Positions 24,005 through 49,902 of a stretch of DNA of 64,000 nucleotides are shown piece by piece (within the stretch, counting starts at the first letter, position 1; each line of letters begins with the position of its first letter). Source of the DNA: Nitrososphaerota archaeon (lineage in GTDB: Archaea; Thermoproteota; Nitrososphaeria; Conexivisphaerales; UBA164); the NCBI GenBank assembly GCA_029786595.1, contig JAFLXO010000003.1, positions 4,990-68,989 of the forward strand, in the 5' to 3' direction. A program made the position numbers and the translations under genes. The notes beneath the pieces are model-generated. The model worked only from the letters and a program-made list of their open reading frames with translations, had not been told where the DNA came from and made no database searches.

Positions 24005-24571
24005 TCAAAACTCGTGTGCTTCAATATCCGAGCCGTCGCTGATTTTATCGGTTTCTGGGTTGAATGGCAAGACTACTTGGGCGTCTACGATTTTTGTCTG
24101 GCCGCCGTCTTCTACGCACATGAGCCCGTCAAACATGCGGGTATTCCTAGAGATTGTCAGACTCACTGACGGTATCTTTAGCATCTCGCCGTTGGCCTTC
24201 GTAGTATTGATGTCGACGCTGGAGTGGAACGCTCCGAAGCTGCAATGGCTATGACCCCAGCCTACCTGAGCGACACCTGGGGTGTTTTTAAAATGAAGGT
24301 ATACGTCGTCTAACCCGTCTGGATATGTCTGTTCCCAATATGCGCTAGACCCGACCTGGTGCGGCACGAATATCCCATCCACATATACCGTATGCCCCAG
24401 TCTGCGGCCTTCCATCGCGAACCCAAACTCTGACTTTACCATCGAAAGGTAGAACATCATCTGGGCCAAGGCACGGTCAGAAAGGACGATTTTTGGGTCG
24501 CCGTCCGGAGCCTGGGTGGCCTTAACAGGGGCTGGCCTTCCAAATCTAAAAAGTTTCCTGAAGTTGATCAA
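24005..24571 (-). CDS. JAB/MPN (JAMM) metallopeptidase, copy 1
   Basis: JAMM signature GWGHSHCSFGAFHSSVD (H-x-H-x7-S-x2-D) with upstream EFGFAMEG. It is clearly alignable over most of its length with 60545..61306. Confidence 0.75.
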   Translation of the reverse strand: MINFRKLFRFGRPAPVKATQAPDGDPKIVLSDRALAQMMFYLSMVKSEFGFAMEGRRLGHTVYVDGIFVPHQVGSSAYWEQTYPDGLDDVYLHFKNTPGVAQVGWGHSHCSFGAFHSSVDINTTKANGEMLKIPSVSLTISRNTRMFDGLMCVEDGGQTKIVDAQVVLPFNPETDKISDGSDIEAHEF

Positions 24572-25980: not shown

Positions 25981-26053
25981 CTCATCTCCTTTGTTGTCTA
26001 AATCGCCGACGGTGGTGGCCTGGGCATCATAGCCCGGCCATATTAAGAGTAAG

Positions 26054-26138
26054 TGCCGAAGGTGGGATTCGAACCCACGAACCCCTAAGGGACGGGATCT
26101 TAAGTCCCGCGCCGTTGACCAGGCTTGGCTACTTCGGC
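26054..26138 (-). tRNA. tRNA-Leu (anticodon UAA), class II with long variable arm
   Basis: Folded by hand. It has a 7-bp acceptor stem (GCCGAAG/CTTCGGC), anticodon stem CGGGA/TCCCG with loop CT-TAA-GA, a 13-nt variable arm (CCC/GGG stem), T arm GTGGG-TTCGAAT-CCCAC and discriminator A. No CCA is encoded. Confidence 0.9.
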
Positions 26139-26185: not shown

Positions 26186-27145
26186 CTACTTCAGTTTTAA
26201 GGAAAGTTCTGTTATGACAGTCTGGACGGCCTTTACAGGTATCTTCGCTCCTGCTGCCAGCCTATGACCGCCGCCCCTTCCCCCTACCCGCCGTGCCACT
26301 TCACCGATGAAGTCACCCAGATGGACAGGGCATGAACTGACCCCCCTTAGGCTCATCGCGGTGTTGCCGCGGCGCTTCTGTTCATAGGCGATGCCTACTA
26401 TGACGCCTGGACGCCCCAGGGTCATCTTTGCACCCGCTGGGATGTTATTGCCTCTAGGCATGTTTACGCTCGCGATGTTCCCCGTTATTCTGGCATGTTG
26501 CTCTACATATCTGCTCAGCTTTATGTCTTTCCTGAGGGTGGCGGTAGCGTTGCGGACGACTGATTTTATCTCATGCGGATACTTTCCTCTGGCAAGTTCA
26601 CGGACCATGTACTTGCGATATCGCATAGTACGGCCTTGTGCTACTGCAGAAGATAACAGGGTAGACTCTAACAGGGCAAAATGTCTGTGGACCCTGTCAA
26701 TGAGATAAGATGCCTTGGGGCCGCTGTCCATATAATCTGTTACTGCACCATAAATGGGCAGGTAATAACACGGAGCCCCAGCTGGTTCGAGGGTAAAATA
26801 TGTCAATACGCTGGCCGATTCGACTGGGTCGTGTATAACTTTCACCCCGATATGTTTCAAGAGGGCGATTTGGTCAGGGTTTAACGGGTGGTGGTCGATA
26901 TATGTTATCGACATCTGTTTCTTGAGGTCCCTTAGCTTCATGATGAGCTCTTGAAAGACGCTCGACGCTCCAAGATCGCAGATTATGAGGCTGGTTGTGT
27001 CTGACGGGACCTTTGATAGTGACCTGATGAACGTGTTATAATCGACCAGCTTAAACGTAGCTCCCGGGTTTGCTGCGAGCGCTATCGCTGCTGAGGATAT
27101 GCCGTCCACATCTTCAGCGTGAGAAATAATGTATGTTCTTGACAA
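26186..27145 (-). CDS. DHH/DHHA1 family phosphoesterase (NrnA/RecJ-like)
   Basis: Motifs are ISHAEDVDGISS, ICDLG and YIDHHP (DHH), with C-terminal GGRGGGHRLAAGAKI (DHHA1 GGGH). Confidence 0.75.
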   Translation of the reverse strand: MSRTYIISHAEDVDGISSAAIALAANPGATFKLVDYNTFIRSLSKVPSDTTSLIICDLGASSVFQELIMKLRDLKKQMSITYIDHHPLNPDQIALLKHIGVKVIHDPVESASVLTYFTLEPAGAPCYYLPIYGAVTDYMDSGPKASYLIDRVHRHFALLESTLLSSAVAQGRTMRYRKYMVRELARGKYPHEIKSVVRNATATLRKDIKLSRYVEQHARITGNIASVNMPRGNNIPAGAKMTLGRPGVIVGIAYEQKRRGNTAMSLRGVSSCPVHLGDFIGEVARRVGGRGGGHRLAAGAKIPVKAVQTVITELSLKLK

Positions 27146-31659: not shown

Positions 31660-32544
31660 CTACTTGCTGTCTCGCGCTCCGACAACTTTAGTGTTGAGAA
31701 GGGTGCCTGGTCTGAGGGTATCGTTATACAGCCGGAACATGTCACGGGGAATCGCGACCCTGTGTTCTGCGGCTTCAAGATGGAGGTGCTTCGCAATGAC
31801 CGGCATGGCTATCTTTGTATCTAACCAGCCTGACTTACCGTGCGCGGCGATTACTTCGTCGTAGGCATGCTGGAGAGACCGGGTTATACGTTCCATGTCC
31901 ATCATAGGCAACGCCGGACCAGCCGGTTTGTCCTTTATAGGGACTTTCGAGACGTCAATTACAACCCGCTGCTTGAACATCACCGTCTTGGGGTCGCCGT
32001 ATGTCTTGCAGACCACCCCCTCATAATGGTTTTCATTGCACCAGGTCATCATCTCAGAGAGCATGGTCCCTATCTCATCTATGGAGTTCGGCGTAAACCT
32101 TCTGAGGCACTGGACAAGACGTATCTTGTATGCACTTGACAGGGACGTTAGTTTGTCATAGTCGAACCAACGGTATGTATTGCCGTCTATTATGTCAAAG
32201 AGGTGCCATTCTGGGACCGTTTTGACTTCTAGCTCTATCTTTGTAGGCCCACGGCCAGAAAGGAGCTCCCCGAACGCGTTTACACCTGGGTAGTCTTTAA
32301 GCAACCCAACGATCCCGGCGTAATCCTGGCTGGCCTTCATCCGCTTTTCGATGTCTTCTGGAGCGCGGGCCTGATGGTGGCTGCCTATGCATGGGACCCC
32401 GTTGTCCGTGTAATTAGAAACGTTCGAGCCGTCTCTTTTAACGGTCACTACCATTTCTCTGCCTATCAGCAACTCTTTATATTCTACCCGTCTCAAGCTC
32501 TCTAAGTCCGGATACTTTATGAACGGCATGTCATCCACCTCCAT
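31660..32544 (-). CDS. ATP-dependent RNA ligase-like nucleotidyltransferase
   Basis: Ordered motifs are present: I VKRDGSN, III AFGELL, IIIa HLFDII, IV EGVVCKT, V VMFKQRV. Confidence 0.6.
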   Translation of the reverse strand: MEVDDMPFIKYPDLESLRRVEYKELLIGREMVVTVKRDGSNVSNYTDNGVPCIGSHHQARAPEDIEKRMKASQDYAGIVGLLKDYPGVNAFGELLSGRGPTKIELEVKTVPEWHLFDIIDGNTYRWFDYDKLTSLSSAYKIRLVQCLRRFTPNSIDEIGTMLSEMMTWCNENHYEGVVCKTYGDPKTVMFKQRVVIDVSKVPIKDKPAGPALPMMDMERITRSLQHAYDEVIAAHGKSGWLDTKIAMPVIAKHLHLEAAEHRVAIPRDMFRLYNDTLRPGTLLNTKVVGARDSK

Positions 32545-32846: not shown

Positions 32847-33004
32847 AGCGGTAGCGCCTTGGCGGCCATGATTATCGCTTTCGCCTGGGATTTCATAGCC
32901 CCGTGTATTGTTATATCAAACGTCGTCCCGTCCTCTGAGCTTACGTCGATCCAGCCGATACCTTGCCGAATTTCTTCACAAGCACGCTGTATTTCTTGGT
33001 TCAA
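32843..33004 (-). CDS. possible 53-aa protein
   Basis: Hand-translated from a TTG at 33004 preceded by GGAGGAGG: (M)NQEIQRACEEIRQGIGWIDVSSEDGTTFDITIHGAMKSQAKAIIMAAKALPL. Its stop forms an ATGA overlap with the start of 32595..32846. Confidence 0.35.
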   Translation of the reverse strand: MNQEIQRACEEIRQGIGWIDVSSEDGTTFDITIHGAMKSQAKAIIMAAKALPL

Positions 33005-33045
33005 TAATTCCTCCTCCTATGTCTTGCCAATCAACCCCACTGAGA

Positions 33046-33825
33046 TTACGACAGGGCCTGAATTGCTTCTATTGGTATGTCCTTTTTAATCGCCGTTATG
33101 ACACCAGTTTTGTACTGGGGTGTTATCAGTTGGATGGATTTCTGTACTATTACCGGGTTATTCCGTCTTATGACAACGGCGTGACCGTCAGCATAACTCA
33201 AGTCCATGGTCTTAAAGTCCTTGCCGTTTATCTTGACGTAGTCTTCAATGATGTCGTATTTGTTGTTTAAATCCGACACAACGCTGGCGACTGGATTGCT
33301 TTTTATCTTAAGGAGCGTATAAGGAGACAGAATATTGATTAAATACTGGATGTTGATAGCCTTGGTTTTTATGCTTAAAAGATACGCTATCTGGTTGAAT
33401 GGCGGGACTCTCGTTGGGTTTATGGTCAGCGTCCCTGAGTTGAACGGGATTGATATGGCGTAGCCAGATGTCCCGGTCGTGGTAGCATGTAAGCCTAACT
33501 GGTCGAGCTCCTTCTTGGCCTTGATATATGTGTCAACCATCTCATTAATACCCTGTTCATCGTCTAACCCTAACTTTACCTCAAGTTCATGATAACTACG
33601 GGCGGTCAGACTTTCATCTAACATATACAGCAGCAGGTTGGCAGTAAATTCAGAAACTTCATATGTCTGGATGGCGTGCTTAGTGTTGACGGTGTTGACC
33701 AACGTGCCATTTTGCGCGAGGATCATCAAAGCCCGCATGTCCAAAGGAGACAATGACAACGTGATAAGAGGCTCTTTACCGATCTTCAATGATGGGCGGT
33801 TGTTAAAATTTAATACTACTTTCAT
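33046..33825 (-). CDS. AL-tail paralog family member (subtype F)
   Basis: 259 aa, clearly paralogous to 40614..41390 (VVLNFNNRPSLKIG..MRALMILAQNGTLVNT..IQTYEVSEFTANLLLYMLD). Tail is ITAIKKDIPIEAIQALS. Confidence 0.75.
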   Translation of the reverse strand: MKVVLNFNNRPSLKIGKEPLITLSLSPLDMRALMILAQNGTLVNTVNTKHAIQTYEVSEFTANLLLYMLDESLTARSYHELEVKLGLDDEQGINEMVDTYIKAKKELDQLGLHATTTGTSGYAISIPFNSGTLTINPTRVPPFNQIAYLLSIKTKAINIQYLINILSPYTLLKIKSNPVASVVSDLNNKYDIIEDYVKINGKDFKTMDLSYADGHAVVIRRNNPVIVQKSIQLITPQYKTGVITAIKKDIPIEAIQALS

Positions 33826-34367
33826 CCTTCCACCTTACTAGGGTCCGATAAAGCGCTAGCAACCTCAAACGGAATGTTATGTCTCAATGACGTCCTTACC
33901 ACCTCTGCTGTTGATTCGCAAACAACCGTCGGAGTCGTGTTATCTAGTATAATGGTGTCGTTTATGATACGTTTAGCGTGCTGCTGGGGCGTGATACTAT
34001 ATAGAGCTTTCGGATCACAGACCAAGTCAACGAGCCCTTCATGCGGCGGATACAATACTCTAAATAGGTGCATGTAAGAGTGCAACATCATCTGAGTAAC
34101 CTCGATTTTCAGGACGCCATTGAACGTGATATCGAACCGGTTTGAGGGCAGGGGGTGTATACTCTTGGAGTGTTTATACTCATTAATGTTAAGAAACGTA
34201 AAAGTGCCGTCAGATGTTGTAACCGTCACATTTTTCCTTGCAAATATATCACCAATCGCTGTTTTGATCACTTTGATTTCATCGGTGATAGGGCCTAATA
34301 TGGATTGAATCTTCTCCGGGATGTCGAAATTGTCATATAATACCTTCGATATTTTTGCCGTGACCAC
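33822..34367 (-). pseudogene. C-terminal fragment of a disrupted AL-tail family gene (subtype G, homolog of 41402..42196)
   Basis: VVTAKISKVLYDNFDIPEKIQ..FTFLNINEYKH..LKIEVTQ..LYPPHEGLVDL.. aligns with residues from about 95 to the end of 41402..42196. Tail is LRHNIPFEVASALSDPSKVEG. Only a GTG start is available, so it may still be expressed as a truncated protein. Confidence 0.6.
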
Positions 34368-34614
34368 AGGGTCCTGTGGTGGCGGGCTCTGCTCATGCGA
34401 GAATCAAAAACGGGGGCGGCCATCAGTCCCACTTCATCTCGTGCCTTGCTTCTTGGTAGGCCTGATGCTCCGCGAACTCTTCCGCGTCCATCTCGAACCG
34501 CATCTGTTCGGTGGTCATGCATCCATAGCCATCCATGGCGGGTTATATACGCCTTCCCTCTATCGCCATCCATAGACGTATGGTTAAATACTGGGGCTGT
34601 CGGTAGGATGTCCG

Positions 34615-34758
34615 ATGATGAAGAAATACACGGTCGCGATAACGGAGGAGTTGGAGTGGAGGCTCGAAGCGGAGCGGAAGAGGAGAGCGTTGGACTCCAT
34701 ACCTGAAGTGATGCGAACAATCGTAAGCGAGGCGCTCTCAAAATCTCAGCCCCAGTAG
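34615..34758 (+). CDS. ribbon-helix-helix (CopG/Arc-like) protein, 47 aa
   Basis: Hand-translated: MMKKYTVAITEELEWRLEAERKRRALDSIPEVMRTIVSEALSKSQPQ. It shows a beta strand followed by two helices, typical of RHH regulators and antitoxins. It lies inside the insertion and is below the track cutoff. Confidence 0.5.
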   Translation: MMKKYTVAITEELEWRLEAERKRRALDSIPEVMRTIVSEALSKSQPQ

Positions 34759-34818
34759 TCTCAAAAGGGTTCCAATAGGGATGGCAACCGCAGAAACGGT
34801 AAACAGCATGAAGATAAG

Positions 34819-35199
34819 ATGGGTGTAGTGGTCTTGCAACAGATACCACGCCCGTTTGATTCGGATGAACTGGAAGAGGAAGAAACCAAAGCCATCCTCG
34901 TCCTCGGTATTCTCGCCTCCATCGCCGTCGGTTTTCAGTTGGACTCGGCGCACTCCTTCCCTTTCATTGACCACCTCGGAGCGCCGCCCGTCTGGGTGAG
35001 GGTCTTCGAAATTCTCGGGCTGGTGACGATTGTCTATTTCTTCGTGCTTTACCTTGGTTTCTTGACGTTGACCCTCGCATTCAGGCCAAAAGGGAAGTGG
35101 CTTCGCCGAATGAAGTTTTGGAGCGGGTTCTGTTTCAAAGTGGGTGCGATTGGCCTCGCCCTTGGACTTTGCGCCTACGCTCTCCGAGTCTTTCTCTAA
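34819..35199 (+). CDS. membrane protein (about 3 hydrophobic segments) inside the insertion
   Basis: 126-aa track ORF directly downstream of the RHH ORF, with segments AILVLGILASIAVGF, ILGLVTIVYFFVLYLGFLTLTLAF and VGAIGLALGLCAYAL. Long spurious ORFs are likely in G+C-rich DNA, so this call is uncertain. Confidence 0.4.
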   Translation: MGVVVLQQIPRPFDSDELEEEETKAILVLGILASIAVGFQLDSAHSFPFIDHLGAPPVWVRVFEILGLVTIVYFFVLYLGFLTLTLAFRPKGKWLRRMKFWSGFCFKVGAIGLALGLCAYALRVFL

Positions 35200-35666
35200 G
35201 AGGACTGCCCGGCCTTCGGTTTGGGAGGCAACATGCGAACATAGCGCCACAACTGCAAGAAGAACCCGATGCCCATCACGACGGTGAGAGGAGGAATCGT
35301 ATAGACGTAGACTACCGTTGGTATGGGAAGGTAATGATGAACGGTTATGAACCCTGGTGTGAACTCGTAGTTGTAGACCCAGTTGAGCCCATTCACGAAT
35401 GTCGCGAGGGTGACTATCACAGACCACCAGACTTGACTCTGAACCCCACGGGCGTATCTCCTCCCCTTGTATGGCCAAAGTTCGCCCTTTCGCTCCGGCC
35501 AGATTACCATTACTGTGAGCAAGATGGCCAGGGGTAGAAAGAAGAGGGCGATAATGCGGAGAGGTGTGCTGGGAAAGGTCACGCTGAAGGCCAAGTCCAT
35601 GAATACAAGGAATATGGCGGCGGGGACAATCCTGTTTGCGACCGACCTGTCCAACGCTACCTGCAC
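35196..35666 (-). CDS. membrane protein (about 4 hydrophobic segments) inside the insertion
   Basis: 156-aa track ORF convergent with 34819..35199. Its hydrophobic segments look protein-like. Confidence 0.4.
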   Translation of the reverse strand: MQVALDRSVANRIVPAAIFLVFMDLAFSVTFPSTPLRIIALFFLPLAILLTVMVIWPERKGELWPYKGRRYARGVQSQVWWSVIVTLATFVNGLNWVYNYEFTPGFITVHHYLPIPTVVYVYTIPPLTVVMGIGFFLQLWRYVRMLPPKPKAGQSS

Positions 35667-35763
35667 CCTCCTGTGTCAAATGATTTAGCCATTCGGCATC
35701 GTCCGGATGTTGCGGGTCTGGTGCTGACCCTCCCCGGCCCAAGCCAACGCAACAGAACCCCCA

Positions 35764-35955
35764 TACGAACCCGGCAAGCCTGTCTGGGATTTCTATCCTG
35801 AGACGTCCATTATCCGTTAGTGACACCTTACCGTTTGAACAGAGTATGGCCCAGACCCCATCCCGTATTTTTCCGTTTTCAGTGTAAAACGCGGCGGTTT
35901 CTACCCTGCTGCCAAATACGATCGAGTTATGGGATACATACACGGTTGCTGTCAT
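35764..35955 (-). pseudogene. N-terminal fragment of the disrupted subtype G family gene
   Basis: MTATVYVSHNSIVFGSRVETAAFYTENGKIRDGVWAILCSNGKVSLTDNGRLRIEIPDRL aligns with the N-terminus of 41402..42196 (..LVLAILCSNGKISSPTPENIRIEIPDRF). The 405-aa track ORF continues as read-through into the insertion. Confidence 0.6.
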
Positions 35956-35981
35956 GGCAAATCACCCCTGTGCACTTAAGG

Positions 35982-36740
35982 TTATTTGGTGTTTGAACTA
36001 AGCGCTTCTGCTACCTTTATCGATACCCCGTTCTTCATGGCTGTTAACACTGTCCCGATAATGTTTTTGTTGATATTTTGTATCATCGTTGGCTTAGAAC
36101 TAAGGTACTGGGTGACGAATACCAGCCCATCTGCGATAAGAATCTGACCGTCATGGAGCAAATACCCACCCAACAACATTGATAGCGTGTTTATGGGGTT
36201 TCGTATGAGATCCGGGACCATTATTCTTGGTATCGACACGTCAGTCAGCAACACTTGTGCTTTTTTGTTGATCATTAAAACCCGCCAGAGCTTGGCGTTT
36301 GGGGCCCTTGACAAAAAGGTCTCAACCGTCTTGTTGGTAAGGGTGATTTCTACGGCGTCTTCTAACTTCATCACACAATAGATTATCTCATCAGCGTCCT
36401 TTGGCGTCATTTTGATTAATGAAGCGTCGTCGGCTTTTAAATCGGAGTCGCTGAGACCTATATGGAGGTCCGCAGGGTTGACATGTGTTATATCAGCCAT
36501 CATCATATACCTGAGCAGGGTGTCAGAGACGTATATCTCGCCTGATATGCTGGCCTGGTGCCCGTTTACTGAAAATACCTTCTCGATAAATGCTCGCGGG
36601 ATCGTTGAAAACTCAAACTCATTTTTGGGTATAAAATACGGAGATGCCACGCCGCTTTTTGAAATGTCGATCCTGGTTGTTTTCTGGGATGCGTCCTCTG
36701 GGAATGCTGTTAGTATTTTTACAATCGCCAAGGAGGTCAC
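35982..36740 (-). CDS. AL-tail family member (distinct body)
   Basis: 252 aa. Tail is VLTAMKNGVSIKVAEALSSNTK. Confidence 0.6.
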   Translation of the reverse strand: MTSLAIVKILTAFPEDASQKTTRIDISKSGVASPYFIPKNEFEFSTIPRAFIEKVFSVNGHQASISGEIYVSDTLLRYMMMADITHVNPADLHIGLSDSDLKADDASLIKMTPKDADEIIYCVMKLEDAVEITLTNKTVETFLSRAPNAKLWRVLMINKKAQVLLTDVSIPRIMVPDLIRNPINTLSMLLGGYLLHDGQILIADGLVFVTQYLSSKPTMIQNINKNIIGTVLTAMKNGVSIKVAEALSSNTK

Positions 36741-37168
36741 CTCTTCCTTCTGACTTTTTCATGCTCAGCAGCATACTTGTTAGACTCTAGGGTTATCTTT
36801 GTCAGACGCCTGCAGAACATACCGAGCTCTGCTTTATGACGTTTATCTATAGGACGTCCTTTGGTCTTAGCATACGCAATCATCAAGACTTCATCTTCAG
36901 CCCGCTCAACCAAAATCATGGACGTGTTTAGGTATTTGGTTAAAAAGACGCGTTCCTCCTGAGGAAGGCGCATGTCACTGGTAACAGTCTTGATGAGATT
37001 TGTTATCTCATCGTAAACCGGGGCTATATTGATTATATCATTGGTGCGTATCCGTTCTACGCTAGATCCGACAAGTCTTGATACGAGACTGGCGTAATAC
37101 TGGATTACACTATTGATATGGGCGGTCGTAGACGGCATGACAACTTCAGAACCTACTATATGATCCAT
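36737..37168 (-). CDS. hypothetical protein
   Basis: 143-aa ORF with a 4-nt overlap with 35982..36740. Confidence 0.55.
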   Translation of the reverse strand: MDHIVGSEVVMPSTTAHINSVIQYYASLVSRLVGSSVERIRTNDIINIAPVYDEITNLIKTVTSDMRLPQEERVFLTKYLNTSMILVERAEDEVLMIAYAKTKGRPIDKRHKAELGMFCRRLTKITLESNKYAAEHEKVRRKR

Positions 37169-37274
37169 ATGATGAAGAGGCGCACGGTATTTAAAAACGT
37201 TTCTGTCCTGGTAATATCAGCTGCCCGCGAAGGCACGACCGGCGCCCTTTAAGACTAGATGACGTTGTCTAAGT

Positions 37275-37934
37275 TTAAGGACTGAGCGCTTCGAGGGCGT
37301 CGATTGGAACTCCAGTCAGGATTGAAGACACCACAGTTTTAGGTATCTTTCCGATTTTACTGTATAATGTTTTGTAGCCATCATTGTATTCTGTTATCCA
37401 TTCTGTATTATCTGGTAACGACATTGAAAGACCCGAAATGACCCCGTTCAAGTTCTCTACTAGATTGAAGATGAGTCTCCTGGTTATCTTGACGTTCATT
37501 AACCGCAAACTAACCTCGTGGTTTTTAAGAATGATTACGCCAACATCATTTTGTGTGAATATGACTGAGCAAGTTATCCCGTCATTTGAGATTTCCACTG
37601 GAGTTTCTGTCGATAAAGTCCATATATCGCGCATTTTTATGATGTTATCTAGGTTCACTGAAAATGGGTTGCCGGCTAAAAGGCAGTCCCTTACAACATT
37701 CCAAGTTGAGGTCATCAGAGGGGTTGTTTCTAATAGATAAACGCATATCTTGGCTGTTTCTTTTGATACATGCGCCTCAAAAATGAGGGCATCGCGTCTT
37801 CGCCAGCGATTTTTAAGCGCCATGACGATTATTGGGCCGGCGACGTCATTAAACTTTGTTATATAACAGCTTAGAGGTAGTTTGTCCAGTCCGGTAAACG
37901 TAAACCAGTTCAACGAGGAAGCGACATACTGCAC
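37275..37934 (-). CDS. AL-tail family member (distinct body)
   Basis: 219 aa. Tail is VVSSILTGVPIDALEALSP. Confidence 0.6.
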   Translation of the reverse strand: MQYVASSLNWFTFTGLDKLPLSCYITKFNDVAGPIIVMALKNRWRRRDALIFEAHVSKETAKICVYLLETTPLMTSTWNVVRDCLLAGNPFSVNLDNIIKMRDIWTLSTETPVEISNDGITCSVIFTQNDVGVIILKNHEVSLRLMNVKITRRLIFNLVENLNGVISGLSMSLPDNTEWITEYNDGYKTLYSKIGKIPKTVVSSILTGVPIDALEALSP

Positions 37935-37951
37935 TGTTACGCCAATTTTAT

Positions 37952-38320
37952 TTACACCAGATCGCCGTTGAAACGCTCAGCCAGGACATCCTTTAATGGC
38001 CTCCATTTTTCAACGCCATCAATGTCGTCAGCGACCTTGACTTCATATTGGTATCTGAGCGAAAGCCCAGTATCCCCCTGGGTTATCATCAGGGCGACAC
38101 GCATAGGCTTATGAGTTTCACTGAGTGGCTCTACGATGTTTTTGATGATCCCTTCTATTGTTTCAGGGTGCAAGTTGCTAAAGGTCCCAGTATGGGTCAC
38201 CAGGCCGTACTCTTCTAACGCAGCCATTTCAGTGAGCAACTGGTTATATACCGCAGGGTGCGTGTTTTTGAGAGTGTCAAGAGACAGGTTACAGTTAATC
38301 TTGTCATTGTCCATATGCAA
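37952..38320 (-). CDS. hypothetical protein
   Basis: 122-aa ORF. Confidence 0.55.
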   Translation of the reverse strand: MHMDNDKINCNLSLDTLKNTHPAVYNQLLTEMAALEEYGLVTHTGTFSNLHPETIEGIIKNIVEPLSETHKPMRVALMITQGDTGLSLRYQYEVKVADDIDGVEKWRPLKDVLAERFNGDLV

Positions 38321-38333
38321 CTTCCTCCATATT

Positions 38334-38699
38334 CTAATATAGCGCTATCGCGGTTTGGATTGATATGCCGTTAAGGATGGCCATTATAACGGATTTTAAC
38401 AATTTGGCTGATTTTACTTCCTTGGCCCCGTCAATGTCGATGATATCAGAGTTGCCGTCTCCGTTCAAAAGCCAAATGACGCCGAGCACATGCTCTAGCT
38501 TTCCATTGACTCTAAAGGCGTCACACGAACAAACAAAATCACTCCTTACGGTGATGGTGTTGAACCCAGTCCTTATTTTGGTTGTCCAGAAATCCTGGTC
38601 CGGGCGTTTTTTAGAGACTATGGTGGTTTTGTTGAATTCAAACCGGCGTTTCTCATATCCATGCTTCACATTTAACACCCAAACTGGGCGGGGACGCAA
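38334..38699 (-). CDS. AL-tail family member (short subtype E)
   Basis: 121 aa, paralogous to 42286..42648 (FNKTTIVS..WTTKIRT..ITVRSDFVCSCDAF). Tail is VIMAILNGISIQTAIALY. The start is uncertain because it overlaps the small ORF 38672..38833. Confidence 0.6.
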   Translation of the reverse strand: MRPRPVWVLNVKHGYEKRRFEFNKTTIVSKKRPDQDFWTTKIRTGFNTITVRSDFVCSCDAFRVNGKLEHVLGVIWLLNGDGNSDIIDIDGAKEVKSAKLLKSVIMAILNGISIQTAIALY

Positions 38700-38833
38700 G
38701 TTGACGAATACGTCGTGCTGGCCCCTGCTGTGGCTGCAGACGTGTATGTGAACCCGCCATATTTCATCACGGCCACGGCCAGCACTATCATGACGGTCAC
38801 GATAACGATTGAGATCAGCGTGGTTTTTTGCAT
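38672..38833 (-). CDS. possible small membrane-anchored protein (53 aa)
   Basis: Hand-translated: MQKTTLISIVIVTVMIVLAVAVMKYGGFTYTSAATAGASTTYSSTCVPAQFGC. Its ATG directly abuts the TAA stop of 38834..39328. Confidence 0.35.
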   Translation of the reverse strand: MQKTTLISIVIVTVMIVLAVAVMKYGGFTYTSAATAGASTTYSSTCVPAQFGC

Positions 38834-39328
38834 TTATATCACGCTCCTGCTCAGCCAGATTAACACCACACCTATCATTATGAACAGCCCGTTCCCGAGG
38901 AAGCTGTTATACTTCCAGTGGGCTATGGCTATTCTTTTCTTGAAACTATAGACACCTGCCATCGTGAAGGAGTCTAGCAGCAAATGACCGGCCGCTATAA
39001 TGACACCGAGCTCGACGGCCCAGATGATTGCTGGTTGCGACCCGTTAAGGAGCACCCCGAGGAGGCCCCACCCCATGACTGCACCCCATATAGGTGCGGT
39101 GAATATTGAATGGGTAAGCCGCGTCCTTGCTGGCACGTTCCTGTACCCCTGGGGTGTGTCAACGACCTTCCTTCTATGACCGAGCACGTCGATCACAAAG
39201 TTTACTATAATGGCCAGCCCCAGACCGATTAAAGTAGCTATCGACAGGCCTATGGGACTTGGTAGAAACCTGGCCACAACGAACGCGACCAGGCCAATAC
39301 TAAAAATATAGTGCGTTATAAGCTTCAT
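38834..39328 (-). CDS. DUF457/YdjM-like membrane-bound metal-dependent hydrolase
   Basis: 164 aa and polytopic, with a conserved His pattern (ITHYIF, DVLGHR, THSIFT, AGHLLLDSFTMAGV). Confidence 0.55.
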   Translation of the reverse strand: MKLITHYIFSIGLVAFVVARFLPSPIGLSIATLIGLGLAIIVNFVIDVLGHRRKVVDTPQGYRNVPARTRLTHSIFTAPIWGAVMGWGLLGVLLNGSQPAIIWAVELGVIIAAGHLLLDSFTMAGVYSFKKRIAIAHWKYNSFLGNGLFIMIGVVLIWLSRSVI

Positions 39329-39462
39329 AACAAACGCCCCCTAATGTTGGTGTATGGTTTATCACGCGCTCTTGGAGCATAGAACCATAGTGTTGCCCAG
39401 GCGCCAGCGTTGCCGTCTGGCCTATTGCGATACCGCCTGTCCAGCCATAAGGCCGGCCTGGG

Positions 39463-39765
39463 CTACGGCGTAAACTGCACTGTAGTAGTGACTCCGATTT
39501 TTTTGTCATTACGCCAGACGCTGTCTACCTCATGGTTACGACCTGGAGCCAAAACCGCCTCTTTCGCGGTTGCTTCGTCTTCATACCCAGAGAGCCACAT
39601 CTCCCCGTCGTTGTTTAGATCGAGAATGACGTAATTTAAGTTCTCAGGGAAGATTCCCAACTCAATTTCGCGGATATCTTCTACGTAACATGTTTCTTTG
39701 ACGTATTTAACAAGGTTCGGCCAGTATTTCTCTAGTTTTCCGTAGATTCTACCATCATCTATCAT
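39463..39765 (-). CDS. hypothetical protein, small paralog set 3
   Basis: 100 aa. YGKLEKYWPNLVKYVKETC..DIREIELGIFPEN..GEMWLSGYEDEATAKEAVL aligns with 16252..16560. Confidence 0.6.
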   Translation of the reverse strand: MIDDGRIYGKLEKYWPNLVKYVKETCYVEDIREIELGIFPENLNYVILDLNNDGEMWLSGYEDEATAKEAVLAPGRNHEVDSVWRNDKKIGVTTTVQFTP

Positions 39766-39983
39766 ACCAATTACCTCCTTTACAATGTTAACACGATTTA
39801 TGAGGCCTTATTTGGACTGCAGGCCCGAGCTAGCGAGACTTCATCTCGGCTCTTAACGACTTTTGGAGTCAGGACCATGATGGGTGATTAAACAGCGCAC
39901 GTGCTTTGACAAAGTAGGGGCAAATCTCTCCTGGAAACCAAAACTGTGATTTTCAGGCGTAACCGTGGTTCCGGGACGACATG

Positions 39984-40175
39984 TTAAAACCACCGGAGCA
40001 GCGCGAGATTGAACGTCTTACCGCAGGATTTGCAGAATACGCCGATTTTGGCCGGTGGCATATCTCCGTCTTCGTCGCTCAAATGGAGCCCGCCAAGCCA
40101 GATATGCTCGCATAACTGCAGCCCTAGTTTAGGAGTGTTCCGATAATCGACCTTTATTCTGTTCACAGTTCTCAC
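39984..40175 (-). CDS. small zinc-ribbon-like protein (CEH[VI]W set)
   Basis: 63 aa with CEHIWLG...FCKSCGKTF. It overlaps 40172..40606 by 4 nt. Confidence 0.45.
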   Translation of the reverse strand: MRTVNRIKVDYRNTPKLGLQLCEHIWLGGLHLSDEDGDMPPAKIGVFCKSCGKTFNLALLRWF

Positions 40176-40606
40176 CTTGTTTTACTAGGGGTTTCTTCTG
40201 TTATCACTTTATACCCGTCTATAGAGATCACGATTTTGCCCAGCTTCTTTTCGGCCAACGCTGTCAATTCTGACACTTCGACCGGATCAGGTTCGTTTGA
40301 ATTAAACCTGAACGGCTCTTCAGGCGCCAATACGATGGAGCATTGCTCTTCTAACCGGGCATACGGGGTCGAATCGTTTTCAGCAGCGTGACGTATGAGC
40401 GCCTCTTTGGTCCAGTTGGTGTATGTGACCCTGACCAAAACATATCTCTTAACAATTCTCCGAGGTCCGTCTACATGTACAGAATGCGTTACAGTTGCAG
40501 TTGGCATTATCATCATCCTCCTATTGTCAGTCTTAATGTCCCTTTCATCATGTCTATATTTTATACTACCGTGTCTGTTCAGTTCATAGCGCATATTTTT
40601 GTTCAA
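40172..40606 (-). CDS. hypothetical protein
   Basis: 144-aa ORF. Confidence 0.55.
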   Translation of the reverse strand: MNKNMRYELNRHGSIKYRHDERDIKTDNRRMMIMPTATVTHSVHVDGPRRIVKRYVLVRVTYTNWTKEALIRHAAENDSTPYARLEEQCSIVLAPEEPFRFNSNEPDPVEVSELTALAEKKLGKIVISIDGYKVITEETPSKTR

Positions 40607-40613
40607 ACAATGG

Positions 40614-41390
40614 TTACTTCAGTGCTGTCAGCGCCTCTAATGGAATGTCTTTCATGATTGCTGTTATGATGTCGGATTTGTATTGTCTCGAGAGTTTTTG
40701 GACTTTCATGACCTTTTTTACTGGGATGCCTCGCCTTATCACCGTGGTCAGGATCTGGTCAGACGGCGGCCAGACCTTGATGGTATAATCTTTGCCGTTT
40801 ATTTTAATATAACCGTCAGTGATCATAAACGGGCTGTTCAGATCAGACACGACCTTCTTTATAGGGTCATTCTTCAAATATAGCAGACTGCTAGCGGAAA
40901 AAAGGACCGTAAGATATTGAATGTGGAGGTCCAAAGTCTTTATATCGAAGAGAAACACGTTGGGATTATTGTGATAAGTGGTAGAGAACGTCACAGGACG
41001 TATCCTTAATGCCCCTGAGTTGAACGGGATTGATATGCTCCCACCACCCTTCCCATGTGCAGGCGTGATTAACGCCTCAAATTCTTTCCTGGCCTCGACA
41101 TGCTTGTCGACCATGGCGCCGAGCTCTTTCACGCTCCTGACCCCACCAATCTTCCTTTCAAGTTCTATGGAATCTGGGGAGTCCAGGATATACCGCAGCA
41201 GATTAGCGGTGTCTTCTGGGACTTCGTAGGTGTGGATGAGGTGGGGTGATAAGATGGTGCTGATCTTTGTGCCGCTCTCTCCAAGGATTATCATCGCCTG
41301 TAGATGCAGCCCCCATGGTGCTAGCTTATACGGGCCGTCGTCCCCGATCTGTATTGTGGGATGGTTGTTGAAATTTATTATCACGCGCAT
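40614..41390 (-). CDS. AL-tail paralog family member (subtype F)
   Basis: 258 aa, paralogous to 33046..33825. Tail is ITAIMKDIPLEALTALK. Confidence 0.75.
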   Translation of the reverse strand: MRVIINFNNHPTIQIGDDGPYKLAPWGLHLQAMIILGESGTKISTILSPHLIHTYEVPEDTANLLRYILDSPDSIELERKIGGVRSVKELGAMVDKHVEARKEFEALITPAHGKGGGSISIPFNSGALRIRPVTFSTTYHNNPNVFLFDIKTLDLHIQYLTVLFSASSLLYLKNDPIKKVVSDLNSPFMITDGYIKINGKDYTIKVWPPSDQILTTVIRRGIPVKKVMKVQKLSRQYKSDIITAIMKDIPLEALTALK

Positions 41391-41401
41391 TTTTCCACCA
41401 C

Positions 41402-42196
41402 CTAGTTCGTTTCTGATATCAAAGCCTTAGCCGCATTGAACGATATCTGGCGCTTTAAAGCCACAGACAAGACCTCGGATGTCATATAACGATCCGCCCA
41501 TGGGGTCGTGCCGTCTATGACAATATTGCCATCTATGGCACAGCGCGCATTTCGGAGTGCCATGCAGGTCGCGGAACTTCCAAGTTTGCTAGCCAGCTCA
41601 ATAAGACCTAAATGTGGCGGAAGTACCATCTCATAGAAGGTGGTTTCATGCCTTACTCGTATGCGCCAAAGTTCGATTTTAACAGTTCCTTCGAACTTTA
41701 TATCAAGATAACCTAAAAACGTGCGTAGACTTTTGGTCTTTGGACGCACCGAATGCCATTTATGAGGTATGAACGTAAAGACGCCACCGTCGAATGCTGT
41801 GACTACGGTCGGCTTCTCCCGTTCTAGACTGTCTATTATTGTGTCGAATGACGCTGCCTGCTTTATAATCTGGTTAAGGGCTCCAGGAATCCTTTCAGGG
41901 GTGTCAAAATTGTCATGCAATATCTGGGGCAATATATTGTCCACGACGTCAGAAGTGAACCGCCAATGGCCTACCTTGTATGTATCCAGAATGGCGTTCA
42001 CTACTTCAATAAAGCGGTCTGGGATTTCGATTCTTATATTTTCTGGGGTGGGTGATGATATTTTCCCATTAGAGCAAAGTATCGCCAAGACGAGGTTCCT
42101 TACTTTAACCCCATTATTGAGGAACGACATTTGCTCGTTCCTGTCGCCCATCGTGATCACATTGTTTGTTATAAAAACAACCGCCATGCGCCTCAC
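41402..42196 (-). CDS. AL-tail paralog family member (subtype G, intact copy)
   Basis: 264 aa. It is the intact counterpart of the split gene at 33822..35955. Tail is SVALKRQISFNAAKALISETN. Confidence 0.7.
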   Translation of the reverse strand: MRRMAVVFITNNVITMGDRNEQMSFLNNGVKVRNLVLAILCSNGKISSPTPENIRIEIPDRFIEVVNAILDTYKVGHWRFTSDVVDNILPQILHDNFDTPERIPGALNQIIKQAASFDTIIDSLEREKPTVVTAFDGGVFTFIPHKWHSVRPKTKSLRTFLGYLDIKFEGTVKIELWRIRVRHETTFYEMVLPPHLGLIELASKLGSSATCMALRNARCAIDGNIVIDGTTPWADRYMTSEVLSVALKRQISFNAAKALISETN

Positions 42197-42783: not shown

Positions 42784-43794
42784 TTAGGCAGTTTCTCGTT
42801 TAGCCCGCTTTTGGACGAAGTAGTCTTTATATTCGTTCTCTATCTTGTCTGCGACCTCGTCTGACTTGTCGAACATCTTCAGCCGGCGATACCATTCTGC
42901 TATGAGCACCCGACCCCACTGCACCAGCAACGGCTGCTTGATCAGGTCCAGCATGCGGATCGCACTTGTTACCCGCTCAGCCTGATCAGCTCCTGGCTTC
43001 ACACAATGGAGGTTTATGTTGTTGACTGTTTTCAGATCGCTCTGGAGGCGGTAATACGAGTCTGGTCCTAAAGGTATGGGTTTGTAATGGTCATAGACGT
43101 TATCTGACGGCAACTGATCCAAGATTGCCCGGACCATCTTTACATCAGATTCATACAGATGTAACGAGTTGGTGATATGGGTGTATGACCCGAGCCCGAC
43201 TCCAAGGTCTGCCGCGAACACTTGCTGATAGAACTGGAAGGTGAAGGTGTCAAGACATAACCCTATCCTGGCGTCATTAGAGCGCATATTGGTTATGGCG
43301 TGCAGTTTGTCGTCTCGTATCAGGTATGACAGGCTTATCGTGCACGCGATGTCTGGTGACTCATATACTTCCTGGATCGGGTTGTGTATTATGGCGACGG
43401 CGCGCCTGGTGTCCTTCTGGTCACGCAGGGTGTCATATATCCTGTGAAACTGGTGCAGCCCTGTTATTTTCAGGCGGTCGTAATAATACCCATAATAGGT
43501 CCCGGTCACCGGGTTTATGAAACGTTCTACTTGTTTGTTATACGCGATCCCTGTAGGCTTCGAGTTAAACAGGAAATCAAGCGTCTCTGCCATGCCGAAG
43601 GGGAGCGGGAGATCTCTGCCCGGGGGGTTAATATAATTCTCCCTTGGGTTCCTGAACGTAAGCACGGCCGGATAAAATTCCTTAGTGTTCATTTCACGGG
43701 GCGATGCCGGCAACCCGAATTCAAGCAGGTCCCTGACTATATTGGGCCATTCACGCGCCGAGCTTTCTCCTTCTTTTTGGTACATGCACACCAC
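42784..43794 (-). CDS. thymidylate synthase (ThyA)-fold pyrimidine C5 methylase/hydroxymethylase, possibly dCMP-specific
   Basis: ThyA landmarks are in order: DTRRAVAIIHN (RR phosphate clamp), IACTISL (catalytic Cys), NMRSNDARIGLCLDTF (QRSxDxxLGxPFN equivalent) and SLHLY. The Asn of PFN aligns with Asp. Confidence 0.7.
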   Translation of the reverse strand: MVCMYQKEGESSAREWPNIVRDLLEFGLPASPREMNTKEFYPAVLTFRNPRENYINPPGRDLPLPFGMAETLDFLFNSKPTGIAYNKQVERFINPVTGTYYGYYYDRLKITGLHQFHRIYDTLRDQKDTRRAVAIIHNPIQEVYESPDIACTISLSYLIRDDKLHAITNMRSNDARIGLCLDTFTFQFYQQVFAADLGVGLGSYTHITNSLHLYESDVKMVRAILDQLPSDNVYDHYKPIPLGPDSYYRLQSDLKTVNNINLHCVKPGADQAERVTSAIRMLDLIKQPLLVQWGRVLIAEWYRRLKMFDKSDEVADKIENEYKDYFVQKRAKRETA

Positions 43795-45345: not shown

Positions 45346-46980
45346 TCATACCAGCCCGGCTTGCTGCTGTTGCTTCTTAAGTAGATCTTGGAGAACGAGT
45401 TTGCCCGCTTCTTCTGGCCTGATGGCGAACATATAGACCCCTTTGTTATTGAACTTCATAATCTGCTCTTTCAAAGAACTCCTGCTGGGGTCTTCGGTGA
45501 CCAGACTTATGACCACCCGGTTTTGTTTTGCCAGGCTGAATATCTGGGTACTCGCTTGTTCTGCTTCACTCACGGACCCGTCAGTGATTATGAGGATGAA
45601 AGATTCTGCCGGGGTTAGTTTTTCGACCTCATTTAACGCAGAAGTGATGACCGTGTTACCGCCGGTCTTGCTCCTGAGCTCAGAGATGTGTGCAAGCGTT
45701 GAGATAGCCCGGGACCCGACCCCCACCCAGTCCTTCGAATTCTTTTCAGTGGTCGCCGCGCGGCTCCCGAAGTAAATCAAAGACGCTGGGATTCTGTTCT
45801 TTTTGGCGTATGCGAGGCTCCTTACCGCCGTTATCGTCTCCCAGTAAAGGATCGACCTGTCTTTGAAGAAGGTGTCTGTAGAAGTCGACACGTCGATGAC
45901 CGCTATGAACGATTTGAACCCGAACGACTGGTTCTCCTGTTTGATATACCTGAAGACGCTTGTGTACTTCTTCTTCCACTTGGTGGGCTCGTACCTGTTT
46001 TGCGCGACACTGATTGGGTTTAGCCTGGAGACGTCTCCGCCGAGCCACCGTTTGTTAAGCTTCTGGTATATCGGCATCTGTGAACTGGAGCCTTCCAGGA
46101 TGTTGAACGGGAGTATCGAGTCCCATATGAGCTGCCTGGTCATATCCTTGGATATGTCTGCGATGGCGTCGTCTGCGTTGATATCGTTGTTATTGAGCAA
46201 GTCTTTGATCTGGTCGGCGCTAAGGCCTGCCTGTATCCCGATCCCTGCCACGGCGCTACCCTGAGATGTGGGAGTTGCCTGGCCTCTGCCGCTTCCACAC
46301 GCCCCTTCCTGAGACCCTGACTGTATTAAGGAATTGAGGTTCTTAGCAGCATCGACGATCAAATCGATGTTTTTTTCGACCTTGCAGGCTTCTTGCTCCT
46401 TTATGAGCCTGTAGACGTCACTGACAAGGGTCCTAAATGCTGGAGAGGACCTGATACTGCCATCCATATACGTCTTAGGTACCTTTACCCCCATTGTTTC
46501 GGAATAGACCATCTGCAATATATGGAACCCTGAACCTGGCGTGATTTTGCCGTTCTTGACGATCCAGTCTTCCTGTGCGCTACGCATGGCGAACCCTTTG
46601 CTGTCGAGGACACTGTCAATGACGGCGTCTGCGATGATGTTCTCCAGTTCATGGGCTTTGCCGTTCGGCACCCTCAGCTCTGCCATGATCCTGGCCTCGA
46701 TGCGCTTGCCTTCTAAGAAAGAGCTAGGCAGCCCATCTATCGACATGTGCTCGTGCTCATGGCCCATATGTGCCCGTAGGTGCTCGGGTTTGAAGCTGTT
46801 CCAGGTCGGTGGGATGTAGATGGTCATATCAGCATACGACGATGAGAACGTGGTCGCCGTCCTGTCTAATTTTACTGTGACGCCCTGAGGTGGAGGAGGG
46901 AATAAATTCCTCCTTACCTCTAGAGCTACATCAATCAATTCCTTAGGCGCTGGTTCTGGTTTTTGAGCCTGTGTGCGCAT
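45346..46980 (-). CDS. VWA-domain protein with N-terminal zincin-like (HExxH) domain, MoxR partner
   Basis: 544 aa. The N-terminus has HMGHEHEHMS (HExxH). The C-terminal VWA-like region has IAVIDVSTSTD (a degenerate DxSxS MIDAS). It lies immediately downstream of the MoxR-like ATPase. Confidence 0.6.
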   Translation of the reverse strand: MRTQAQKPEPAPKELIDVALEVRRNLFPPPPQGVTVKLDRTATTFSSSYADMTIYIPPTWNSFKPEHLRAHMGHEHEHMSIDGLPSSFLEGKRIEARIMAELRVPNGKAHELENIIADAVIDSVLDSKGFAMRSAQEDWIVKNGKITPGSGFHILQMVYSETMGVKVPKTYMDGSIRSSPAFRTLVSDVYRLIKEQEACKVEKNIDLIVDAAKNLNSLIQSGSQEGACGSGRGQATPTSQGSAVAGIGIQAGLSADQIKDLLNNNDINADDAIADISKDMTRQLIWDSILPFNILEGSSSQMPIYQKLNKRWLGGDVSRLNPISVAQNRYEPTKWKKKYTSVFRYIKQENQSFGFKSFIAVIDVSTSTDTFFKDRSILYWETITAVRSLAYAKKNRIPASLIYFGSRAATTEKNSKDWVGVGSRAISTLAHISELRSKTGGNTVITSALNEVEKLTPAESFILIITDGSVSEAEQASTQIFSLAKQNRVVISLVTEDPSRSSLKEQIMKFNNKGVYMFAIRPEEAGKLVLQDLLKKQQQQAGLV

Positions 46981-46986
46981 TATTTG

Positions 46987-48594: not shown

Positions 48595-49135
48595 ATCCCC
48601 ATGACAATCGTCTGACTAACGGCACTGTGTCACTGAGCGTATTTATCAGCGTGATGTTAGACGATTCTGCGGTCTGATTCCATGGCTGTTTCCTTAGTAG
48701 CAAAGGCACTCCGAGGCTGCCTACTCTAGGATCTGCGTCTATGACGACGGTTGTGTTGTGTGGCAGGGCGACCCGGTCTCCGGAACCAATGACAACCGGT
48801 TCAAATTTGTCATAAGGTAACTTCATAAACCTTAGCCACTTCTCTATCCGCTCTACCGTCTGCGTGTCGCCTGACGCCTTGACGGACACCTGACCTAGAT
48901 TACCGAGGTCGTTGAGCGCCTGAATCGTACCACGCAGGCCGTCGACCGTCTTTATTGCGGTGTAATCGACCCAGACCTTTGAAGCGACCGATGGCGTTAT
49001 GGGGTATTTCGTGTTTAGTTCATATGGATCGAACGACTCGAGAGTTTTGTTCTGGTTATAAGTCGTGTTATAAGCCTCTAGAAGCCTGTCAGCTGTCCTG
49101 GCTATCACGTTCTCTGCTTCAATTGTTACCTTCAT
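48584..49135 (-). CDS. hypothetical protein
   Basis: 183-aa ORF that overlaps both neighbours. Confidence 0.55.
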   Translation of the reverse strand: MKVTIEAENVIARTADRLLEAYNTTYNQNKTLESFDPYELNTKYPITPSVASKVWVDYTAIKTVDGLRGTIQALNDLGNLGQVSVKASGDTQTVERIEKWLRFMKLPYDKFEPVVIGSGDRVALPHNTTVVIDADPRVGSLGVPLLLRKQPWNQTAESSNITLINTLSDTVPLVRRLSWGFGR

Positions 49136-49884
49136 TGTGCCTCACTCTCGATCTTCTTAGTTAGCGCGCTGACCTCTGCTGGATCTGTGTAGAACCCATA
49201 TGACAGCCCGGCCTGGGCGACTACGTTCTTTAGGTAGTAATAATACCACACCCCGAGAGCCTCGGTCGAGTGGTTTGCGCATTTATCATAGCTGGTTTCC
49301 CAGTCTGGGCCAAAAGCTCCTGCAAGGTAGTAAATGTCTTTCCTGTAATATCCTAGCGCTGAAATGACGTGTTTGCAGAGTCCGAACCTGCGCTTGGCGT
49401 TGTCGTCCTTTCCGTTATATTCTGGGCAGTTGGTGGCGTAGATTTTGTTTTTAAGGTCGAGCGTGACGAGATATGTCGTGGCGCCTTTGACGATGAAATA
49501 TGCGGCCATGTCCTGGGCCGCCACATATGACGGCTCTCGGTCGAGGGCCCTGAGGATGCGCTGCCAGTTAGATACCGTGTTAGTCCGGCTCCTCATAACG
49601 CCAGCAGGCAGCATCGCTGACATTTTTGACCCAGTCAACGAGGTAGACACCCATTTGTCTGTGGCAAAGACGTAGACCATCTCAGCCTCGTCCATGGCTC
49701 TGTAGAGTTTGATGTTCGGTTTTGTAAACCTTCCAGTCTGGATTGCATGCGCAAGTTCGGCTATCGTCTTTGGTGCCGTATAGTCAGCGATTGGGAGGGT
49801 GAAGGTACTTCTGCTTCCAACCTCAACCGTCTCATCGGTGGTGAGTTTTAGGAGCTCACTAAGCCTGTCAGCTATTGAATCCAT
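49132..49884 (-). CDS. hypothetical protein with degenerate SWIM-like Cys/His motif
   Basis: 250 aa. TNCPEYNGKDDNAKRRFGLCKHVISAL resembles CxCxnCxH but lacks the first Cys. Confidence 0.5.
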   Translation of the reverse strand: MDSIADRLSELLKLTTDETVEVGSRSTFTLPIADYTAPKTIAELAHAIQTGRFTKPNIKLYRAMDEAEMVYVFATDKWVSTSLTGSKMSAMLPAGVMRSRTNTVSNWQRILRALDREPSYVAAQDMAAYFIVKGATTYLVTLDLKNKIYATNCPEYNGKDDNAKRRFGLCKHVISALGYYRKDIYYLAGAFGPDWETSYDKCANHSTEALGVWYYYYLKNVVAQAGLSYGFYTDPAEVSALTKKIESEAQ

Positions 49885-49902
49885 CCTCCCATACCGCCTC
49901 CT

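Follow-up and report, generated by a model that had tools for sequence, protein, structure and literature searches.

The question raised by this locus is what kind of DNA interrupts a paralogous gene at positions 34385 to 35759 of the window, and where that DNA came from. The window is the whole stretch of 64,000 nucleotides (nt) that was analyzed (assembly GCA_029786595.1 of a Nitrososphaerota archaeon, contig JAFLXO010000003.1, positions 4,990 to 68,989 of the forward strand), and it is regarded here as part of an archaeal virus-like element. The best explanation, with a probability of roughly 85%, is that the interrupting segment is a truncated host transposon, related to the IS6 family of insertion sequences (IS), that was inserted in a viral paralog.

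An earlier sequence-only reading had claimed that a family gene is split at this position, and BLASTP alignments of both halves to one intact paralog bear this out. In an all-against-all comparison of the open reading frames (ORFs) of the window, residues 3–64 of the ORF 34738..35955 aligned with residues 5–66 of the paralog 41402..42196 (45% identity, E = 7e-12), and residues 8–173 of the ORF 33822..34367 aligned with its residues 91–259 (30% identity, E = 4e-20). The downstream neighbors of the two copies, 33046..33825 and 40614..41390, are also paralogs with a BLASTP identity of 41%, so it is a two-gene module that was duplicated. The member in question is split at 35760/35759 and 34385/34384 by 1,375 nt, as listed below.

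33822..34384, minus strand: 3′ part of the split gene; the listed ORF begins with GTG at 34367 and aligns with paralog residues 91–259.
34385..35759, minus strand: whole insert of 1,375 nt with 54.2% G+C, read as what is left of an IS6-related cargo transposon after loss of its transposase.
35760..35955, minus strand: 5′ part of the split gene; codons 1–65 and one base.
41402..42196, minus strand: intact reference paralog, with its neighbor 40614..41390 downstream.

The 5′ and 3′ halves lie in different reading frames. Since the gene is both interrupted and frame-shifted, the split copy has most likely been inactivated; other copies of its family exist. The 181-aa gene half has no relatives in IMG/VR.

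The boundaries of the insert were set by four contigs: an empty viral allele (L104), a host copy (L006), an empty host site (L089), and a transposase-bearing contig (L107). The first of these, a 2.9-kb contig of GCA_021831985.1, contains the upstream neighbor gene followed by an uninterrupted gene of 260 aa. Positions 1–2308 of L104 correspond to window 38069..35756 and positions 2327–2913 to window 34389..33800. The 5′ part of the split gene matches codons 1–65 of the uninterrupted allele without a difference, and the 3′ part has a nucleotide identity of 93% with it. The 18 nt of L104 between the two matches (TATGGACCTATGCAAGGT, encoding the residues MDLCKV) have no BLAST match in the window. 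This stretch resembles the paralog at the equivalent position (LDTYKVGH), from which it follows that the uninterrupted allele is ancestral.

At the junctions, the bases common to both partners are GGTT on the left and GAG.CC and C on the right. The target sequence missing from the window amounts to 18 nt according to BLAST, or to 26 nt (about 8 codons, FMDLCKVR) if the shared junction bases are assigned to the element. A small deletion accompanying the insertion had been suspected from the sequence-only reading; the deletion is confirmed relative to L104, while its proposed size of 15 to 18 residues was an overestimate. A 13-nt hairpin at 34358..34385 was first suspected to be an element end, and was rejected as native gene sequence since it is present in the empty allele too.

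Both junctions recur in independent assemblies: MEGAHIT assemblies in ENA from three samples, the NCBI assembly GCA_016276955.3, Logan contigs of three runs, and a JGI contig. Short contigs span the two junctions at once (L007/L097, 1,458 nt; L096, 2,458 nt). The strains that bear the junctions differ from the window by 0.4–7% in the flanks. L002 differs by 0.4% overall with a single base within the insert, and L099 by about 7% in the 3′ gene half with two bases within the insert. A near-invariant insert within diverged flanks points to one insertion event that spread across recombining strains. With both filled and empty alleles in existence, the insertion is polymorphic in the population.

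Strain divergence is unevenly distributed around the locus. The upstream gene at 35982..36793 is a hot spot: L002 has 26 substitutions there, L099 and L107 have a comparable set, and the insert and the 5′ gene half beside it hardly vary. In L099 and L104, the divergence of the 3′ gene half, 33822..34358, is about 7%. The pattern around these two regions reads as mosaic recombination among strains. In GCA_021831985.1, contig L003 begins inside the 3′ gene half (window 33926) and L104, with the uninterrupted allele, ends 22 nt past the gene, which suggests that the assembly broke at a polymorphic locus and that the sample held mixed strains.

In composition, the insert stands apart from the DNA around it. 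A jump in G+C content from about 40% to about 60% had been reported from hand counts; the jump is real and its size is smaller, with 54.2% in 34385..35759 and 44.1% and 45.5% in the flanks. The mean for 1,375-nt stretches of the window is 48.0% with a standard deviation of 2.4. The insert is the most G+C-rich stretch of its length in the 64 kb, such a G+C content is reached by 0.08% of positions, and its contrast with the flanks is nearly the largest in the window. The AT skew reverses within the insert. BLASTN and TBLASTX identified no second copy of the insert in the rest of the window, and a blastn search of a phage collection produced no match to 33000..37000.

Compared with host-lineage DNA, the insert has a 99.0% match to a Nitrososphaerota chromosomal contig. 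This contig, L006, is a 17-kb Logan contig (run SRR28285717) with a G+C content of 59%, and its positions 9895..11131 align with window 35760..34524 at 99.03% identity with 12 mismatches over 1,237 nt. It also encodes the 152-aa membrane protein of the insert. The other genes of L006 include an ornithine/DAP decarboxylase, an ABC peptide transporter, and a signal peptidase I, beside which the copy lies. The signal peptidase is of the Nitrososphaerota type, and the ABC ATPase shares 99% identity with one in the archaeal metagenome-assembled genome (MAG) WH2.bin77 and about 80% with its counterparts in Nitrososphaerota MAGs.

The corresponding empty site was found in contigs L089 and L090, where an identical signal peptidase gene is followed directly downstream by TBP with no insert. 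Their similarity to L006 stops at L006 position 9895, the same position at which the similarity to the virus starts. The order of signal peptidase and TBP is kept in a more distant complete genome, CP066694.1. The comparison of the filled site with the empty ones shows that the block was inserted in the host as well and that its left terminus there is the same. The left end, the host copy, and the empty host site establish the element as host-related and mobile. The earlier supposition that the segment is foreign, coming perhaps from the host or from some small mobile element, is supported by the L006 match, the terminal repeat, and the empty host site.

The identity of the mobile element follows from L107, the end of a 73-kb contig (ENA ERZ27237177 k141_1045777) that was reached by way of a variant of the insert's ribbon-helix-helix (RHH) protein. 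In the sense of the window minus strand, L107 opens with a stretch of the viral upstream gene, followed by the split gene's 5′ half and the entire left part of the insert, and continues with a 379-aa transposase, a 148-aa ORF, and then aS21, EF1-beta, FEN1, and Hjc, core archaeal genes with a G+C content of 55–65%. The window sequence MAAPVFDSRMSRA at 34423..34385 aligns with MPAPVFDYRKARA, the start of the L107 transposase. Beyond codon 13 the window enters the viral gene and L107 stays in the transposase. Since the thirteen codons are collinear up to the point where the viral gene resumes, the insert terminates on its right in a transposase gene truncated after codon 13.

The L107 transposase scores 67 bits with the Pfam model DDE_Tnp_IS240, for which the cut-off is 27, and among the NCBIfam transposase models transpos_IS6 matches it best (E = 1e-32). 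Its amino terminus contains SWIM and zinc-ribbon domains. At least 588 relatives of this transposase are found in JGI metagenome contigs, some of which are 250–620 kb long, and only one in IMG/VR; this difference was counted in favor of a transfer from host to virus. The best 80 of the at least 588 relatives (L109–L188) have identities of 56–68%. Clear ends were recognized in 7 of 20 relatives examined, giving a length of 2.4–3.8 kb and imperfect terminal inverted repeats of 50–64 bp that start with GGYTCTGT and contain an inner repeated site. Perfect 8-bp target duplications are present in five of these seven. The transposon family may be an undescribed branch of IS6-like elements with hundreds of copies in archaeal metagenome contigs.

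Within the insert, the following features were identified.

35700..35759, minus strand: left terminal inverted repeat (GGTTCTGTTGCGTTGGCTTGGGCC...; begins GGTTCTGTTGCG).
35196..35666, minus strand: membrane protein cargo gene 1; 156 aa, called as 152 aa (P0001).
34819..35199, plus strand: membrane protein cargo gene 2; 126 aa, with three to four hydrophobic segments.
34615..34758, plus strand: putative RHH (Arc/MetJ-type) regulator; 47 aa, divergent from the transposase start.
34541..34590, no strand assigned: putative divergent promoter region; TATA-like boxes read from the sequence.
34423..34518, minus strand: 31-codon ORF (orf31); its stop overlaps the transposase start (TGATG).
34385..34423, minus strand: first 13 transposase codons (MAAPVFDSRMSRA); truncation point of the element.

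The first base of the left repeat coincides with the position at which the host copy and the empty host site diverge. It has the GGYTCTGT terminus and the two-site layout of the 50–64-bp repeats of the family relatives, and it closely resembles the repeat of L109. A repeat search within 34200..35900 identified no convincing terminal repeats or duplications, and the lack of a repeat pair there is explained by the loss of the right end.

Long ORFs on both strands had been described within the G+C-rich segment. The genes for the putative RHH regulator and for the two membrane proteins are real, and the 405-aa and 184-aa ORFs proved to be read-through artifacts: the first, starting at 35955, is the 5′ gene part running out of frame through the insert and the second is a read-through frame in G+C-rich DNA. 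The two cargo genes are convergent with ranges that overlap by 4 bases. The 156-aa protein has hydrophobic segments, and all three differences between its virus and host copies are synonymous. An exhaustive HMMER search identified only 7 relatives among 1.8 billion representatives; searches with the 152/156-aa protein produced none in IMG/VR, GTDB genomes, or JGI metagenome contigs, and a word-indexed protein search only a self match. A homolog of 165 aa is encoded in the sister element of a further contig, L100. The 126-aa protein is called as a gene in independent assemblies. Nothing significant was found for the cargo proteins in Pfam, PADLOC, or PHROGs, or for the RHH protein in NCBIfam.

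The assignment of the 47-aa protein as a regulator comes from a 98%-identical protein that one source names an Arc/MetJ-type RHH regulator and from an alignment of homologs with a strand-helix-helix pattern; there is no Pfam hit at E values up to 1. The RHH gene and its copy in L100 differ chiefly in third codon positions. Among 74 relatives, 21 have an RHH homolog 46–147 nt upstream of the transposase on the opposite strand. Given this divergent position beside the transposase, the RHH gene belongs to the transposon core and the membrane proteins represent variable cargo.

Between the RHH gene and orf31, two TATA-like boxes were identified, TTAAATA at 34584..34590 on the plus strand and TATATAA at 34549..34543 on the minus strand. 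Each is centered about 28 nt before a start codon, that of RHH at 34615 and that of orf31 at 34518. Judged by the usual spacing of archaeal TATA boxes, 34541..34590 would function as a promoter region, and a spacing of about 28 nt is compatible with leaderless archaeal transcripts. The putative promoter of orf31 is directed into the 3′ gene half, and it could sustain transcription of the downstream viral genes. The 31-aa product of orf31 has no record as a called gene. The ORF and its TGATG overlap are retained in the diverged sister element of L107, and an alternative upstream ATG at 34536 is ATA in the host copy.

The identity of the element, its two junctions, the host copy, and the empty sites in host and virus are direct observations; the order of events, insertion before deletion, is inferred from them as the likely one. 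A cargo transposon of an IS6-related family, resident in a Nitrososphaerota chromosome, would have moved into one paralog of the archaeal virus-like element. The transposase from codon 14 on would have been lost afterward, either through a deletion or through the faulty resolution of a cointegrate between virus and chromosome. The same event would have extended through whatever genes followed the transposase, the right inverted repeat, and the 8-bp target duplication into the target gene, of which about 18–26 nt are gone. What remains at 34385..35759 is the left repeat, two cargo genes, the RHH gene, orf31, and 13 transposase codons, a unit that cannot move by itself.

Several observations weigh against this explanation. 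The L107 transposase reaches 113 bits with the NCBIfam model transpos_IS6, for which the cut-off is 125, and the family departs from the typical IS6 organization in being longer, with longer repeats and extra genes. On this basis, the element is probably best described as IS6-related rather than as a typical IS6 member. The transposase itself is deduced from a sister element, type B of L107, whose terminal repeats differ, and no full-length type-A element with left repeat A, its own transposase, and a right repeat was recovered. L006, the only type-A copy from the host, ends at the contig end inside the element and leaves the host right junction unrecovered, and the right side of the window copy is deleted, so that no target duplication can be checked there. 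Among the proteins scanned, no capsid or terminase gene was identified, only a TFB homolog similar to those of archaeal viruses. The explanation does make a prediction for a host type-A copy extended beyond L006: it should have a full transposase starting with MAAPVFDSRMSRA, a right repeat GGCTCTGTTGCG..., and the 8-mer GGAATCAG duplicated before CTGCTTAAATAC in the TBP upstream region.

Of the other explanations, the one that survives best extends the preferred reading instead of replacing it. The remnant may serve as a patch of homology that lets the virus-like element recombine with a chromosomal, intact sister transposon of the host, integrating or forming a cointegrate without an integrase. 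This would account for two hybrid contigs as the two junctions of that state. L100 (ENA ERZ27236928 k141_215951) presents, in order, a host FAD oxidoreductase, the left part of element B with a terminal repeat, the 165-aa membrane homolog, and a diverged RHH gene, and then sequence identical to the right part of the viral remnant and to the 3′ gene half. L107 is its complement, with the viral 5′ gene half and left remnant part joined to the transposase and right end of element B and to host aS21, EF1-beta, and FEN1. The same palindromic 8-mer CTGCGCAG occurs in both host flanks beside matching terminal repeats (GGGTTCTGTCCA...), which makes the two contigs two sides of a single host insertion of sister element B. 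Both switch partner inside the same 153-nt block, 34448..34600, identical in the two contigs and the window, as a single reciprocal crossover predicts. However, L100 and L107 are MEGAHIT contigs built with k = 141, and a shared block longer than k could be misjoined in the de Bruijn graph. They also come from different samples, in the sample of L100 the left viral part also exists on a short contig of its own (L195), and L107 reaches just 780 nt into viral sequence. Taken together, recombination through the remnant is a tentative proposal that is rather less likely to be right than wrong. The partner switch of both contigs lies inside the elements and not at their ends, and hence it is silent on cointegrate transposition.

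A capture of host DNA by illegitimate recombination, in which a random chromosomal piece replaced a few viral codons without transposition, is improbable. The short shared bases at both junctions, the few target bases missing, and the lack of a target duplication and of a right-hand repeat would all be in keeping with such a capture. However, a random piece is not expected to end precisely at a transposon end, and the left boundary is the first base of a transposon terminal repeat, the GGCTCTGT terminus. The filled and empty host sites are separated at this same boundary, and relatives insert with 8-bp duplications at the same terminus.

The interpretation of the segment as an intron, whether of group I, group II, or the archaeal bulge-helix-bulge type, that is spliced out to leave a functional gene is very improbable. 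Its length is 1 modulo 3 so that removal restores the frame, and its ends can pair over 8 bp (GGGUUCUG with CAGAGCCC; cofold –62 kcal/mol). There is also a weak bulge-helix-bulge-like arrangement with a central helix of 4 bp and outer helices of 2 and 3 bp. However, a scan produced 11 bulge-helix-bulge candidates that are just as weak, as chance would predict; in the fold of the full-length segment the 5′ end pairs with another region, and the 8-bp pairing is partly built from viral target sequence. Rfam group I and group II models had no match in 33500..36500 at E values up to 10, where all hits were at chance level, and at gathering thresholds Rfam identified only tRNA in the whole window. 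In addition, the same block occupies an intergenic site in the host, it encodes genes on both strands, and it is bounded by a transposon repeat on one side and by a piece of a transposase gene on the other.

Least probable of all, and practically excluded, is an assembly chimera in which the G+C-rich block was wrongly joined into a viral contig, for while the block does occur in host DNA of the same environments, where chimeras arise, the recurrence of both junctions across ENA, NCBI, Logan, and JGI assemblies, in strains with 0.4–7% flank divergence and on single short contigs, speaks against it.

With a truncated host transposon as the preferred reading, the element may be compared to known systems. 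Members of the IS6 family are 0.7–0.9 kb in length with 14-bp repeats, 8-bp duplications, a single ORF, and cointegrate formation, and one known member is reported with a passenger gene (PMC7986276). Like IS6/IS26, the sister element has a DDE transposase that best matches the IS6/IS240 type. The termini start with GG, and in a comparison of our own the left end GGCTCTGTTGCG resembles the IS26 repeat GGCACTGTTGCAAA. As described for this family (PMC7986276), relatives have 8-bp target duplications, and element B is flanked on both sides by CTGCGCAG. Unlike IS6/IS26, whose short repeats are generally perfect, the relatives are 2.4–3.8 kb long with imperfect two-site repeats of 50–64 bp and with a divergent RHH gene and variable cargo genes, SWIM and zinc-ribbon domains make up the amino terminus of the 379-aa transposase, and the window copy is without a transposase and a right end.

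A second point of comparison is the Halobacterium virus phiH, in which the host insertion sequences ISH1.8/ISH12 occur in the viral genome, with population variants and rearrangements of viral DNA (PMC6210493). Both cases present a host transposon in a viral genome that is polymorphic in the population, and the phiH insertion sequence takes part in viral DNA rearrangements (PMC6210493). They differ in that the phiH element is an intact, exact copy of a host insertion sequence of another type that carries tnpB (PMC6210493), whereas the window element is a truncated IS6-related transposon with cargo in a paralogous gene of an uncultured, Nitrososphaerota-linked element. As with transporter IS (tIS), small cargo transposons, and phage morons, a short mobile unit brings accessory genes with expression of their own into a new replicon. 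In this case they are genes for a regulator and small membrane proteins, and the unit differs in G+C content from the replicon that received it. In contrast to these, the window unit is fixed in place by transposase loss and its cargo has no match in PADLOC, PHROGs, or Pfam.

That the replicon is viral is a tentative reading drawn only from context: a TFB homolog, MoxR and VWA proteins, and RNA ligases. The TFB homolog at 2613..3515 is similar to those of the Sulfolobales viruses YNP1/YNP2 and of Halorubrum tailed viruses (23–26% identity), and it marks the replicon as archaeal. The region 45346..58080 encodes MoxR-like AAA ATPases, VWA-domain proteins, a DUF2201 metallopeptidase-like protein, and an ASCH-domain protein, and two RNA-ligase-like genes are located at 31660..32544 and 53286..54662. 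Other genes of the window include a divergent thymidylate-synthase-like gene (42784..43794), a DHH/DHHA1 phosphoesterase (26186..27145), and a tRNA-Leu with anticodon TAA and a long variable arm on the minus strand (26053..26138). Database records place the exact RHH protein on a contig of 185,215 nt and the membrane proteins on another of 89,435 nt, so that the replicon could extend far beyond the 64-kb window.

Nearly all genes of the window are on the minus strand, and by BLASTP many fall into paralogous families of about 250–340 aa, tandem or dispersed, that are located in 726..12191, in 33046..42196, and elsewhere. Further paralog pairs are 6437..7456 with 11178..12191 (44% identity), 5594..6349 with 9232..10038, and 24005..24571 with 60545..61306. 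Three long plus-strand ORFs, 6705..7460, 11254..11799, and 11986..12300, are similar to one another (40–64% identity) and lie opposite paralogous minus-strand genes. They are most simply regarded as an antisense shadow of the paralogs, not as separate genes.

The case is ordinary in kind and informative. As sequence-level evidence of recent DNA exchange with a Nitrososphaerota host, in samples from the same study series, the remnant connects this uncultured virus-like element of archaea with a host lineage. The insert also shows how members of the element's expanding gene families get lost, and it brings out a family of IS6-related cargo transposons that is abundant in archaea and has a conserved RHH gene as its partner. 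Should the hybrid contigs prove genuine, transposon remnants of this kind would provide an integrase-free way for viruses and plasmids into host chromosomes.

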